NCBI GenBank assembly: GCA_964347215.1 | Contig: CAYFXS010000001.1 | Coordinates: forward strand, 1-44,494 | Source: an uncultured Candidatus Saccharibacteria bacterium | Lineage (GTDB): Bacteria; Patescibacteriota; Minisyncoccia; Phycocordibacterales; UBA918 | DNA length: 44,494 nucleotides | Direction: 5' to 3' | In this document: piece after piece, positions 39,640 to 44,494 of the stretch | How positions within the stretch are numbered: position 1 is the first letter of the stretch | Layout: every line of letters begins with the position of its first letter | The notes under the pieces: model-generated | Databases searched by the model: none | Seen by the model: the letters and a program-made list of their open reading frames with translations, nothing else | Told to the model about the DNA's origin: nothing | Program-made: the position numbers and the translations under genes

Positions 39640-41115
39640 ATGTTCAGACTATTTTCAGCTCAGGTACTATTAATTATCGGTATTTTATTGGCTGCTTTTT
39701 TAAGTTTTATACTATTTTTCTCAGCTGGCAACCAACATGAAGTAGTGCTCACTGAGTCTGGTTATCAACCTTTGAGTTTAACGATTGCGGTGGGAGATAC
39801 TGTCACATTTGTTACTAACTTAGCTGAAGATCATTGGCCAGCCTCTAATGTTCATCCAGCCCACACAGCTTATCCTGATTTTGATCCTCGTCGCCCTGTG
39901 CCAGCAACAGTGTCTTGGTCTTTTACTTTTACTGAGTCTGGCACTTATAAATTTCATGACCATTTAAATGCCCAGTATGAAGGTGTTATTGTGGTGGGGG
40001 AGGAGACGAAAATAGATACTGCTGCTTGTGATCAGGATAAAACAGTGCGTTGTTTTGAACAGTTGGTGGAGGAGGTGGTGGCAGAAGGTGGAATAAAAGC
40101 GGCTTTTGATGTGGTGGTAGAGCTCTCAGAGACTGAACCGTTATTTCGTAATGATTGCCATGGTTACGCTCATATAATAGGCGAGGCAGCGTATGATCTG
40201 TATGCAAATGGAGAAGATTTTTCATTGTCAGCTGATACCGCTTTATGTGGTTACGGTTTCTATCATGGCTTCATGGAAACATTACTACTTACCAATGGTG
40301 ATGTAGAAGAAGCTCGTAGTTTTTGTCGCTACGTTGATAAGCAATTATCTAAACTGGCGGCTGGAGCGAGCAATGCTTGTTTCCATGGTACAGGTCATGG
40401 GGCGGTAGACGGTAGTGATCCGACCGCTTGGGGTGATGTAGATGCTCTGATGGAGCCAGGTTTTATTTTGTGTGAGAAGATCGCTAAAACTGAGCTGCAA
40501 AGTTACCTTTGTCACACAGGGGTGTTTAACGCGATTGATATTCTTTCTCGTGATCCTAAATACGACATAGAGGAAGTTCAACAAGATCCGTTTGCTACCG
40601 TTTGCTACCATCAGCCAGATGAACGTCTAGAAGGATGTTACACCAACATGATGCCGGTAGTTTTAACAATGTATAAAAATGATGTTGCGGCGACCGCTGA
40701 TTATATTAATGAACATATGTTAAGAGGGGAGACGCCTTCAATTGAGGGTTATACAACCAATGAGATGGTTACCTTAGCTGTGTTTGCCCAATATGTTCGT
40801 ATTCATGGGTCTGAAGAGGGTTATATGGAAAGAGCGATTGATCTGTGTCGATCGCAACCGGCTGACGATCAGTATGCTTGCTTTGAAGGGTTATCTTACA
40901 GTCATGTTAAGTATGGTCCACCCGGCAAGGGTTACATCAAGAATCTGGAATTTTGTGCCCATCCTGATTTGGTAGACACAGAAGAAGATGCTTGTTATAG
41001 CTATTTATTAAATCGTTTACGTAATTACTATGGAAATGAAGGAGCTAAGCAAGTGTGCGCTATGGTTCCGGAAGAATATAGTAGTAAGTATTGCCAGTAT
41101 GTCTCGTTTATTTAA
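39640..41115 (+). CDS. Fusion: N-terminal TM helix plus cupredoxin-like domain plus paired-cysteine His-rich domain, paralog 5
   Basis: The cupredoxin-like part is YQPLSLTIAVGDTVTFVTNLAEDHWPASNVHPAHTAYPDFDP...WSFTFTESGTYKFHDHL. After it come CHGYAHIIGE, CGYGFYHGFMETLL and CFHGTGHGA. Confidence 0.8.
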   Translation: MFRLFSAQVLLIIGILLAAFLSFILFFSAGNQHEVVLTESGYQPLSLTIAVGDTVTFVTNLAEDHWPASNVHPAHTAYPDFDPRRPVPATVSWSFTFTESGTYKFHDHLNAQYEGVIVVGEETKIDTAACDQDKTVRCFEQLVEEVVAEGGIKAAFDVVVELSETEPLFRNDCHGYAHIIGEAAYDLYANGEDFSLSADTALCGYGFYHGFMETLLLTNGDVEEARSFCRYVDKQLSKLAAGASNACFHGTGHGAVDGSDPTAWGDVDALMEPGFILCEKIAKTELQSYLCHTGVFNAIDILSRDPKYDIEEVQQDPFATVCYHQPDERLEGCYTNMMPVVLTMYKNDVAATADYINEHMLRGETPSIEGYTTNEMVTLAVFAQYVRIHGSEEGYMERAIDLCRSQPADDQYACFEGLSYSHVKYGPPGKGYIKNLEFCAHPDLVDTEEDACYSYLLNRLRNYYGNEGAKQVCAMVPEEYSSKYCQYVSFI

Positions 41116-42836: not shown

Positions 42837-43190
42837 ATGAAAAAAATATTAGTAACTTCAGTCTTGATCACCGTATTGCTATCAGTCGTTTTTTTCTGGG
42901 TTCAAAGACCTGGTGGTGAACAGTATATTATGGTGCGTACAGATGATGGTTATGAACCGCAAAACCTAACTATCAAGGTGGGGGATACTGTTGTATTTAA
43001 AAATGAAAGTAGTGAGTATCATTGGCCAGCTTCTGATTTGCATCCAACCCACGGTGCTTACCCGGCTTTTGATCCTCGTACCCCAATTGCTCCAGGAGAA
43101 GAGTGGTCTTTCCGTTTCACTCAAGCTGGCGCTTGGTCCTACCATGACCACTTACGAGCGAACTTAACCGGTGTGATCATCGCTGAATAA
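42837..43190 (+). CDS. Stand-alone membrane-anchored cupredoxin-like protein (all-His signature)
   Basis: MKKILVTSVLITVLLSVVFFW is the TM helix. The domain reads YEPQNLTIKVGDTVVFKNESSEYHWPASDLHPTHGAYPAFDP...WSFRFTQAGAWSYHDHL. Confidence 0.8.
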   Translation: MKKILVTSVLITVLLSVVFFWVQRPGGEQYIMVRTDDGYEPQNLTIKVGDTVVFKNESSEYHWPASDLHPTHGAYPAFDPRTPIAPGEEWSFRFTQAGAWSYHDHLRANLTGVIIAE

Positions 43191-43203
43191 AACAGGCAAT
43201 GTA

Positions 43204-43238
43204 AATGGGCCCGGATTCGATAAATCGATCCCGGCCCA
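43204..43238. terminator. GC-rich hairpin between the convergent cupredoxin gene and a small minus-strand ORF
   Basis: atgggcccggattcgat / atcgatcccggcccat form an imperfect palindrome. tgggcc (43205-43210) pairs with ggccca (43232-43237). Confidence 0.6.
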
Positions 43239-43243
43239 TCTTC

Positions 43244-43378
43244 TTAGAAGAATCCCGTCACAATGTTGGTGCGGCGGTTCAGTTGCTTGGCAACCTTCGT
43301 CCGATTGTTTTCGTTAATCAGACTGATGCCACGCAGTGGCGCCCAGTCGCCATTTGCACGACGATTGAATTGCACCAT
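43244..43378 (-). CDS. Hypothetical 44-aa basic protein in the G+C-rich insertion
   Basis: MVQFNRRANGDWAPLRGISLINENNRTKVAKQLNRRTNIVTGFF. The start is taken at the ATG just downstream of the repeated promoter/leader, and a hairpin follows the stop. It is short, so coding status is tentative. Confidence 0.45.
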   Translation of the reverse strand: MVQFNRRANGDWAPLRGISLINENNRTKVAKQLNRRTNIVTGFF

Positions 43379-43390
43379 AAAGGCAACTTC

Positions 43391-43447
43391 GTTCCAGTTA
43401 AGGTTGGATAAGTATATTGCCACACATATATACCTATTTGTCAATAG
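43391..43447 (-). repeat. Promoter/leader repeat, copy B (upstream of the 44-aa ORF)
   Basis: On the minus strand it reads ctaTTGACAaataggtatatatgtgtggcaaTATACTtatccaaccttaactggaac. Its gene-proximal 32 nt match copy A at 29 positions. Confidence 0.65.
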
Positions 43448-43490
43448 AGTTCAAATTATTTACAGGAAATGTTTTATATTAAAAATTTAA

Positions 43491-43516
43491 GGCCGGATGA
43501 TGTTACTCATCCGGCC
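43491..43516 (-). terminator. Intrinsic terminator after the 176-aa gene
   Basis: ggccggatga (43491-43500) pairs with tcatccggcc (43507-43516). On the minus strand it is followed by ttaaattttt. Confidence 0.7.
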
Positions 43517-43527
43517 CGAGGGCAGTT

Positions 43528-44058
43528 TTACCGCCAGTAAGGGTCCCAGCTGCGGGCGCCGCCACCGTAGCGGTAGAGCCAGCGCTCTTTTCCACCGGAC
43601 ACAATTTTGGTGTTCAGCAGTTTTTCGACCCAGCGGCGAGCATTGCCACCGCTTAGTCGTTCGACCCCGAACGCCTTGCCGTTCTTCACGGCAATAGCGT
43701 AAGGAGTATCCTTTGCATCGGGGTATTGGAACAGTACGACTTGCGAACCGTGCTCATCCACGATGCTGGCGTAGGCAACTGCTCGCCATTTCTGGTATTT
43801 GCCGTCCACATAGGTCTGATACCAGGCACGGTAGCGACCTGGGTCACCTTTGCGGTTAGTGTCGCACATGCGAATCATGTGGGAACGTTCTTGCCCGTTG
43901 GGTGCCAGGAAGAACATTTCCACTGCGGGACCAGCCCATTTGCCGGGCATGCCGCTGGCGCAAGCCAAAGCTCCAGTTGTAAGAGCAAGAGTGATTGGGA
44001 TGGCTGCGAGGGCCATCTTGATTTTACGGAACATTTCAAGTCTCCCTTGTTTGGCCAT
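43528..44058 (-). CDS. Hypothetical secreted protein or lipoprotein, G+C-rich (probably horizontally acquired)
   Basis: It is 176 aa with the signal-like N-terminus MFRKIKMALAAIPITLALTTGALAC (possible lipobox). Codon usage (CTG, GCC, CGC, GGC) is unlike the neighbouring genes. The start could be 44058 or 44034. Confidence 0.7.
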   Translation of the reverse strand: MAKQGRLEMFRKIKMALAAIPITLALTTGALACASGMPGKWAGPAVEMFFLAPNGQERSHMIRMCDTNRKGDPGRYRAWYQTYVDGKYQKWRAVAYASIVDEHGSQVVLFQYPDAKDTPYAIAVKNGKAFGVERLSGGNARRWVEKLLNTKIVSGGKERWLYRYGGGARSWDPYWR

Positions 44059-44065
44059 AGCGGCC

Positions 44066-44120
44066 GTTCCAGTTAAGGTTGAATAAATATATTGTCATAA
44101 ATAACTAGCTTTGTCAATAG
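44066..44120 (-). repeat. Promoter/leader repeat, copy A (upstream of the 176-aa gene)
   Basis: On the minus strand it reads ctaTTGACAaagctagttatttatgacaaTATATTtattcaaccttaactggaac. It shares the TTGACA box, the -10 region and the leader caaccttaactggaac with copy B. Confidence 0.65.
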
Positions 44121-44176
44121 GTAAGTTGAGTTGATGGATAATTTTTCTTTAAATAACTGATGTTAAAATTAACTTT

Positions 44177-44494
44177 ATGCAGAAAAAGTGGTTAGCTCCA
44201 TTGGTCTTGGTGGTGGCAATAGCTAGTTGTTTGGTTTGGTTTTTTAGTCAGAGTACAGCTGTGGTGAAAGAGGTTCTAATTACAGATAGTGGCTTTGTCC
44301 CAACCAGTCTAGATATCACAGTTGGGGAGACAGTTAGGTTTGTTAATCAATCTGGCCGTGATGCATGGCCAGCTTCTGACTCCCATCCTAGTCATGGAAT
44401 ATGGTCAGACTTTGACCCTCTGAAGCCATTGCTAGATGAAGAGAGTTGGGAATTTACTTTTGATCGTTTAGGCTCTTGGTCTTATCACGATCAT
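44177..44494 (+). CDS. Membrane-anchored cupredoxin-like protein, 4th copy (runs off the right edge of the window)
   Basis: An ATG at 44177 opens the frame MQKKWLAPLVLVVAIASCLVWFF...FVPTSLDITVGETVRFVNQSGRDAWPASDSHPSHGIWSDFDP...WEFTFDRLGSWSYHDH, which stays open to the end of the window. Confidence 0.8.
   Translation, partial: MQKKWLAPLVLVVAIASCLVWFFSQSTAVVKEVLITDSGFVPTSLDITVGETVRFVNQSGRDAWPASDSHPSHGIWSDFDPLKPLLDEESWEFTFDRLGSWSYHDH

Follow-up and report, generated by a model that had tools for sequence, protein, structure and literature searches.

A G+C-rich islet of two minus-strand units with a duplicated promoter/leader between cupredoxin-like genes of a Patescibacteriota bacterium

Anatomy of the islet

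The window analyzed here is the entire 44,494-nt contig C1 (CAYFXS010000001.1) in the assembly of an uncultured Candidatus Saccharibacteria bacterium (GCA_964347215.1; genome of 910 kb in 78 contigs, 41.8% G+C), and the subject of the analysis is a G+C-rich islet of about 0.93 kb that lies at a distance of 370-1,300 nt from the contig end. In agreement with an earlier note on this DNA, two open reading frames (ORFs) are located on the minus strand between the plus-strand cupredoxin paralogs cup117 and cup106: pep44 (43244-43378), encoding a basic orphan peptide of 44 amino acids (aa), and ORF176 (43528-44058), encoding a predicted exported orphan protein of 176 aa. Each ORF is enclosed by signals of its own on the same strand; pep44 is preceded by promoter/leader copy B (43390-43447) and followed by a terminator hairpin (43203-43241), and ORF176 is headed by promoter/leader copy A (44065-44120) and followed by an intrinsic terminator (43490-43517). 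The islet consists of two self-contained units, here termed unit B (pep44) and unit A (ORF176), with a common expression signal.

Duplicated promoter and leader

The nearly identical AT-rich sequence of about 55 nt that had been noticed ahead of each gene is indeed present: 29 of the 32 gene-proximal nucleotides agree between the copies, the stretches 43390-43435 and 44065-44110 are 83% identical, and the core CAACCTTAACTGGAACG is invariant (17/17). This longest exact direct repeat of 17 nt compares with a mean of 10 nt and a maximum of 14 nt in 300 dinucleotide shuffles. The conservation is arranged in three blocks, namely CTATTGACAA (10/10), TG(G/A)CAATATA and the invariant 17-mer: copy B is composed of CTATTGACAA (43438-43447), a 19-nt spacer, TGGCAATAT (43414-43422) and the 17-mer (43390-43406), and copy A of CTATTGACAA (44111-44120), a 17-nt spacer, TGACAATAT (44089-44097) and the 17-mer (44065-44081).

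In both units, the TTGACA is perfect and the leader is at least 28 nt long. Of the promoter elements proposed in the earlier note, TTGACA is confirmed in both copies, but the proposed -10 element TATA(C/T)T is positioned 20 and 22 nt away from it and is too distant; TTGACA-N17/N19-TGnCAATAT appears to be the better reading of the promoter, and a simple sigma-70 scan called neither of the two sites. According to the spacing from TGnCAATAT, the transcription start would coincide with base 1 of the invariant 17-mer, which is thus predicted to represent about +1 to +17 of the transcript. Both copies of the scaffold have kept the -35 box, the -10 region and the initial 17 nucleotides of this putative transcript; the spacer has drifted and contains a 2-nt indel. 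Such patterned conservation argues for functional constraint, i.e. co-regulation or a common fate of the RNAs that depends on their 5' ends, and not for a recent neutral duplication.

The scaffold is present in the genome in these two copies only: even at low stringency (word-7 BLAST), the search for further cassettes headed by the 55-nt repeat, as envisaged in the earlier note, yielded no third copy. The promoter/leader was found neither in 165 genomes of the family (at one mismatch or less, beyond the control rate) nor in the species-genome and viral collections, and the only metagenome match of the scaffold, contig JABAOH010201081.1, originates from the same population. The scaffold is therefore private to the islet. 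Among shuffled leaders, 86% and 68% form duplexes with the transcript or its 3' region that are as good as those of the real leader, and no antisense partner of at least 12 nt was detected elsewhere in the genome, where only scattered 11-mers occur.

The G+C-rich terminator hairpin that had been reported for each gene was recovered in both units. On the RNA, the stop codon of pep44 (43244-43246) lies 2 nt upstream of the first paired base (43241) of the unit B hairpin (free energy, dG, -25 kcal/mol; z -4.9; none of 200 shuffles equally stable). Only 12 nt lie between this hairpin and the stop codon of cup117, a convergent gene, so that it may, as predicted, terminate both pep44 and cup117. The unit A terminator (dG -29, z -6.3), also called by the terminator scan, comprises an 11-bp G+C-rich stem and a subsequent T-run (43480-43489). 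The outer stem GGGCCGG...CCGGCCC is common to both terminators, and random pairs of native hairpins share a 7-mer in 3.5% of the cases; a duplication of the 3' scaffold is thus no more than suggested. In the genome, the hairpin-arm motif does not exceed its expected frequency.

Composition and codon usage

The G+C contents quoted in the earlier note were reproduced for all four stretches (56.7% at 43561-43620, 58.3% at 43801-43860, 43.3% at 42901-42960 and 26.7% at 44101-44160). The islet genes have G+C fractions of 0.51-0.57 versus 0.40-0.44 in their neighbours, and a 300-nt window within the islet ranges near the 99.9th percentile of genome G+C. At the third codon position (GC3), ORF176 and pep44 reach 0.61 and 0.62 versus a host mean of 0.364 (standard deviation 0.054), as determined from 500 long host ORFs. 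The values of pep44 at the three codon positions are 0.51, 0.40 and 0.62, and in both called frames the G+C content increases from codon position 2 to 3, as in real coding sequence.

The claim that the coding sequences are compositionally foreign held: under the host model, the synonymous-codon log-likelihood of the two islet genes deviates by z = -2.5 and -3.1, and among the codon models applied to ORF176 and pep44 the host model had the worst fit (-1.21), with moderate-G+C models at -1.06 to -1.09. Within the latter, a low-G+C Rhodobacteraceae model (-1.06) and models of G+C-rich genus-mates (-1.07 and -1.09) fitted the islet nearly equally well; the resemblance to proteobacterial codon usage seen in the earlier note agrees with the data without being diagnostic. 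The codons CCG (0/9) and GCG (2/23) are avoided in the islet. The spread of 36-55% G+C among loci of the host genus (L017, L019, L021 and other same-genus loci) is unusually wide for one GTDB genus.

Expression signals of the host and of the islet

The 3' tail of the host 16S rRNA (contig C17, minus strand, about 11.8 kb) ends in ...GGAUUAAUUCCAAUUGG (versus the canonical ...GGAUCACCUCCUUA) and contains no CCUCC. The tail GGAUUAAUUCC is common to the host genus and was found likewise in the genus-mates G034, G179 and G186 (loci L034, L035 and L036); judged from these tails in the host and three same-genus genomes, the whole genus is without a canonical anti-Shine-Dalgarno (anti-SD) sequence. 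The loss of the anti-SD has been published for a subgroup of Parcubacteria (PMC9297842). The proportion of long host ORFs with an SD-like motif is low (5-6%), and the same rate was obtained for G179 with 54% G+C, which served as composition control. Relative to native ATGs, TATAAT-like boxes accumulate at -12/-13 (53 and 34 sites versus a background of about 5), which suggests that many native genes are leaderless and have promoters with a -10 element only. Upstream of genes, the enrichment is eight-fold for TATAAT and next to nil for TTGACA (23 in 641 upstream regions), which has no orientation bias.

The repeated expression signal of the islet had been described as native-looking. This view was not sustained: a signal with only two copies in the genome stands against a host that is enriched in TATAAT and not in TTGACA, often leaderless and without anti-SD. 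Judged from these sequence signals, the expression style of the islet is foreign to the host. In addition, an SD-like GGGAGA (44041-44046, minus strand) is positioned 6 nt ahead of the second ATG (M9) of ORF176 and, since the host is without anti-SD, is probably a relic of an SD-using donor.

Products of the two units

The second ATG of ORF176 (M9 at 44034) is the likelier start, because GGGAGA-N6 precedes it and the first ATG is located within a GGCC...GGCC stem. The N-terminus constitutes a signal sequence that ends in A-L-A before a cysteine and is lipobox-like: judged by eye, the stretch ...TTGALA-C fits a permissive PROSITE-type lipobox rule. However, a search for the signal peptidase II LspA (PF01252) that was successful in 10 of 14 named control genomes did not detect it in the 90.5%-complete genome, which makes a lipobox questionable in this host. 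After the signal sequence, the protein is basic (isoelectric point, pI, 9.8) and Gly-rich, with Trp or Tyr at 17 of 144 residues. Two single-sequence AlphaFold2 (AF2) models of ORF176 consist of seven beta-strands and one short helix (pLDDT 52-57), and two Foldseek searches with them retrieved nothing significant (best E 0.017, TM at most 0.3; mostly propeller fragments and lectins).

In line with the statement of the earlier note that neither protein was recognized, the searches with both products yielded no homologue. ORF176 is the sole member of its own cluster among 5.8 billion proteins (word-indexed search), and phmmer against 1.8 billion representatives retrieved only long repeat proteins via a stretch of 15-20 residues, GGKERWLYRYGGGARSWD, which resembles one blade of an SBBP beta-propeller (single-blade motif GxERWxYRYxG). 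No match was obtained in Pfam (E at most 10), PHROGs, PADLOC or the PDB sequences, and no relative in six-frame pattern scans of IMG/VR and 185,579 species genomes; a recognizable catalytic or pore-forming motif was not found in the protein. A lipocalin or SBBP beta-propeller fold was considered and rejected, with only one blade motif, Foldseek E values of at least 0.017 and TM of at most 0.3. Tentatively, an accessory role is predicted for ORF176 as an exported protein of the surface or one that binds the cell wall or glycans, which would fit its surface-protein neighbourhood.

The pep44 peptide (pI 12.0; 6 Arg and 2 Lys) has no signal peptide, and no other ATG ORF can be accommodated between leader and terminator. 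Homologues were found neither among the 1.8 billion representative proteins nor in Pfam, PHROGs, PADLOC, the PDB, phages, plasmids or the 165 family genomes; a borderline match in G183 is intergenic and without start codon, and was dismissed as chance. The ORF is nevertheless probably coding, for a real co-expressed basic peptide.

Insertion slot and assembly

The left neighbour of the islet, cup117 (42837-43190, plus strand), is a native cupredoxin-like gene (Pfam match to Cupredoxin_1 below the Pfam cut-off) and the last member of the p421-p171-cup117 block; the right neighbour, cup106 (44177-44494, plus strand), encodes an N-terminal cupredoxin-like domain and is cut by the contig end. cup106 represents the N-terminal part of a longer Cys-rich surface protein: contig JABAOH010201081.1 (L008) adds about 210 nt that reach into the Cys-rich domain. 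The islet is thus situated directly upstream of a cupredoxin-Cys-rich fusion gene, cup106 being no stand-alone cupredoxin, and the Cys-rich domain beyond it (L008:1-300) resembles that of a 491-aa protein encoded at 39640-41115.

The gene order p421-p171-cup117 is kept in the related genomes G179, G188, G148 and G186 (cup117 57-63% identical) and occurs in a fused form in G034. The genes that follow are different: a Cys-rich gene directly after the cup117 homologue in G179 and G034, a membrane protein gene in G186, a gene for an 897-aa protein in G188, and in G148 a gene for an unrelated 120-aa secreted orphan (L019:3637-3999, minus strand; G148:C4) with mildly raised G+C content, an AGGAGA SD of its own and a G+C-rich hairpin. 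In view of these differing genes, the position after cup117 is a variable slot. The empty site that was to be sought in relatives according to the earlier note has a partial counterpart in the direct cup117-to-Cys-rich junction of G179 and G034, which is empty-site-like but considerably diverged, as the orthologues around the slot are 44-63% identical and G148, G186 and G188 carry other genes there. The islet DNA and ORF176 were not found in 60 relatives. As to the slot itself, G148 (36% G+C, same genus) repeats the architecture of the islet in the corresponding position with another gene, and in G186 (L020, contig C11) an rve-type (IS481/IS3-like) transposase is encoded about 1.4-2.0 kb downstream of the cup117 orthologue.

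At the borders of the islet neither a target-site duplication nor any direct repeat of at least 6 nt was detected, and 86% of shuffles contain an inverted repeat as good as the best one of the flanks (15/20); a transposon or miniature inverted-repeat transposable element (MITE) was rejected on these grounds. No recombinase is visible in the available sequence, which ends 370 nt past the islet and is continued by about 210 nt in L008; a genome-wide search for integrases was not made. The earlier suggestion of a cassette-like acquisition mechanism marked by the repeat was not supported, given the lack of other copies, of a target-site duplication and of an attC-like site, and a flanking inverted repeat at chance level.

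An identical islet is contained in the separately assembled contig L008, which derives from a pooled marine-sediment metagenome of Kathiawar (PMC8319310) and has the same right-hand and internal junctions; two scaffold gaps and eight single-nucleotide differences in cup106 are the sole deviations from the window. The eight substitutions are clustered within 35 nt (44406-44440 versus L008) beside a scaffold gap and could reflect strain variation or cross-assembly between cupredoxin paralogs. The exact ORF176 product is recorded on two contigs, the longest with 45,552 nt, and repeats of at least 15 nt that might seed a chimeric join are absent from the borders.

Similar islets elsewhere in the genome

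At least eight other compact G+C-rich ORFs within flanks of native composition are present on other contigs of the genome, and six of seven sibling islet genes scanned were without Pfam family. An SD-like motif precedes seven of nine islet genes (ORF176 included), which corresponds to a binomial P of about 8e-8 versus the host rate for a set that was picked post hoc and for three of whose genes the start codon was selected with regard to the SD. An exact TTGACA is located upstream of five of the nine genes, and a sixth possesses TTGACG-N16-TATACT.

The islet gene at C11:8384-8749 (minus strand) encodes an XRE-type helix-turn-helix (HTH) regulator. Along the whole sequence, this protein shares 72-80% identity with a regulator conserved among marine Rhodobacteraceae/Paracoccaceae; its third-position identity to the Rhodobacteraceae sequences is saturated (0.36-0.46), and its G+C content resembles that of the lower-G+C members of the family. 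The gene is embedded in candidate phyla radiation (CPR) flanks of 41% G+C and has a GGAGA/AGGA SD and a hairpin of its own. Based on the sequence match, the regulator is a probable inter-phylum import, and part at least of the islet class is by the same evidence alphaproteobacterial in affinity, consistent with a marine-sediment source. It was the only sibling with relatives: in the donor search, no close relatives were retrieved for C8_205, C29_227 and C12_199.

The other islets are of diverse build. At C12:5450-6650 (L037), a G+C-rich islet comprises a TTGACA promoter, a 9-codon mini-ORF (MKMTRKCEIG) with a strong AAGGAGG SD, a hairpin and then an ORF for a 199-aa orphan with an AAGGAG SD, an arrangement that looks like a leader-peptide or attenuator; the 199-aa protein (C12_199) is unique within the family. 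Single-gene islets with GC3 values of 0.56-0.68 are located at C29:1242-1925, C5:12241-12600, C5:24004-24462, C8:25911-26528 and C9:2250-2567; these are mostly Pfam orphans, in most cases with an SD-like motif, and the promoter of the C29 islet is a textbook TTGACG-N16-TATACT.

Interpretation and alternative explanations

On balance, the region is somewhat more plausibly than otherwise a horizontally acquired, moron-like islet that consists of two tandem insulated units with a private duplicated promoter/leader. According to this interpretation, an accessory islet of about 0.93 kb would have been acquired horizontally into the variable slot after the p421-p171-cup117 surface-protein block of a Parcubacteria-type Patescibacterium in marine sediment. 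Each minus-strand unit would be autonomous, with a promoter, about 17 nt of invariant initial transcript, an ORF and an intrinsic terminator; unit A would give rise to a protein of about 16 kDa that is exported, basic, rich in aromatic residues and all-beta, and unit B to a highly basic cytoplasmic peptide of 44 aa or, less likely, to an RNA of about 200 nt. The two unrelated ORFs would be switched on together, either through the same contacts with polymerase and regulator or by the same 5'-end-dependent RNA fate, and the scaffold would have been duplicated within the lineage of the islet itself and not borrowed from the host.

Several observations weigh against this interpretation. For neither ORF was a donor or homologue found, and the transfer is therefore inferred solely from composition and signals. 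Codon usage does not distinguish between a related, G+C-richer CPR donor of the same genus and a proteobacterial one such as a low-G+C member of the Rhodobacteraceae, and the loci sampled from same-genus genomes themselves range from about 36% to about 55% G+C. A single SD-like motif such as that before M9 is possible by chance (roughly 6-15%), and pep44 has no SD. Long G+C-rich hairpins are the normal terminator style of the genome (about 86 genome-wide), and those of the islet thus hold no information on its origin. Finally, the structural models of ORF176 are of low confidence, which leaves the functional guess weak.

An unlikely, though not negligible, alternative is that the units belong to a class of fast-evolving accessory cassettes intrinsic to the CPR, inherited or exchanged within the Patescibacteria and not acquired from outside, to which the high G+C content and the classical signals would be inherent and for which the scaffold would provide a handle for the swapping of unrelated ORFs by homologous recombination. 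The slot of G148, where a small secreted orphan of no relation to the islet genes has a slightly elevated G+C content and its own SD and hairpin, is in accordance with this explanation, as are the eight or more similar islets of the genome, the common outer stems of the terminators (p about 0.03), the end of the repeat exactly where the units diverge and the G+C-rich sequence sets in, and the same-genus genomes that reach 51-55% G+C and whose codon models fit the islet. However, the scaffold exists in two copies only and is absent from the 165 family genomes and from public collections; neither the two ORFs nor the sibling C12_199 have a relative in the family, an SD would be senseless for genes long resident in a genus without anti-SD, and one sibling islet is plainly alphaproteobacterial in affinity. 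A similarly low probability is assigned to the broader proposal of an accessory-gene system of leaderless Patescibacteria without anti-SD, in which pre-packaged G+C-rich orphans with -35 box, leader, SD and terminator would be exchanged at fixed slots, with the promoter/leader (and perhaps the terminator stem) as homologous handle and with some of the material taken up by a competent episymbiont from neighbouring or host bacteria, e.g. marine Rhodobacteraceae; no published description of this cassette class in Patescibacteria was found in the literature searched.

Concerning unit B, its product might be a small non-coding RNA of about 200 nt that acts on unit A or other targets via the common 5' end, as the ORF is short, without SD and encodes a peptide without homologue, and the module is compact from promoter to terminator. 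We regard this as rather improbable: the host does not use SDs anyway, the G+C content increases from codon position 2 to 3 in a coding-like manner, the stop codon is placed just ahead of the terminator, Rfam gave no match at E of 1 or less, the overall fold (z -4.0) is mostly due to the terminator itself, and the leader has no specific pairing partner. Still less probable is a functional conflict pair, for example a toxin or bacteriocin that is secreted and an immunity or antitoxin peptide to go with it, or a peptide and its receptor. Two small, adjacent and apparently co-regulated genes of an accessory, strain-specific islet, with one product predicted to be exported and the other small and basic, would suit such a pair, but the toxin/immunity or peptide/receptor pairing put forward in the earlier note gained no support from PADLOC, Pfam or PHROG, which gave no match. 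Moreover, the genes form separate predicted transcription units and not an operon, ORF176 has no recognizable catalytic or pore-forming motif, and pep44 is not hydrophobic and has neither a leader nor a double-glycine motif. A type II toxin-antitoxin or known defence system was rejected likewise, with separate transcription units and empty PADLOC and Pfam searches. Very improbable is an assembly artefact, in which a fragment of a G+C-richer organism would have been joined into a CPR contig. The source is a metagenome bin and the islet is situated 370-1,300 nt from the contig end; however, native cupredoxin-family genes are present on both sides within one contig, the pooled assembly repeats the right-hand and internal junctions, the exact ORF176 protein is encoded on a second contig of 45.5 kb, no k-mers are shared at the borders, and the units adjoin the native genes tidily in their promoter/terminator arrangement.

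Comparison with known systems

The interpretation as a horizontally acquired islet finds its closest model in the morons of phages (the HK97/HK022 concept; Cumby et al. 2012, PMC3594210), which carry a promoter and a terminator of their own, as predicted here, a G+C content different from that of their neighbours and often exported or lipoprotein-type accessory products. Morons are inserted between genes that are adjacent in relatives; in the case of the islet, the adjacency of cup117 and the Cys-rich gene is given in G179 and G034 and other genes are present in G148, G186 and G188, at 44-63% identity. In contrast to the phage morons, the islet is not part of a phage or prophage (no PHROG match, no similarity to phage DNA or protein), it resides in a Patescibacterium whose own genes use another style of expression, and it comprises two units with a duplicated promoter/leader.

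With horizontally acquired genomic islets in general, the region has in common the deviant GC3 and codon usage, the strain- or species-specific occurrence, the variable chromosomal slot and the orphan content, but it measures only 0.93 kb, each gene is individually insulated, and no integrase, tRNA target, direct-repeat borders or mobility genes were seen in the available sequence. The impression of a cassette arises from the small unrelated ORFs in tandem, each followed by a palindrome, as in integrons. Integron cassettes, however, are promoterless, possess attC sites with R''/R' core sites (GTTRRRY) and are located next to intI/attI/Pc, whereas the ORFs of the islet have promoters of their own and ordinary G+C stems with T-runs; an integron gene cassette was rejected on account of these promoters and of near-perfect G+C stems and T-runs without core sites. 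Moron-like islets are themselves already known; new is the presence of such an islet in the chromosome of a Patescibacterium without anti-SD.

Biological implications

At this locus, the payoff is modest and amounts to two orphan genes. As a practical consequence, the SD in a host without anti-SD would be a marker of imported genes that is independent of composition. The finding also raises the questions of whether the islet genes are expressed in the host at all, how a leadered SD-type mRNA is translated by a ribosome without anti-SD, and whether such islets contribute to the diversity of the cell surface, through which the cells attach to their host. If the interpretation is correct, an ultra-small episymbiont whose stripped-down gene expression involves no anti-SD, numerous leaderless mRNAs and -10-only promoters would still take in and keep foreign-style genes that bring along their complete classical signals.

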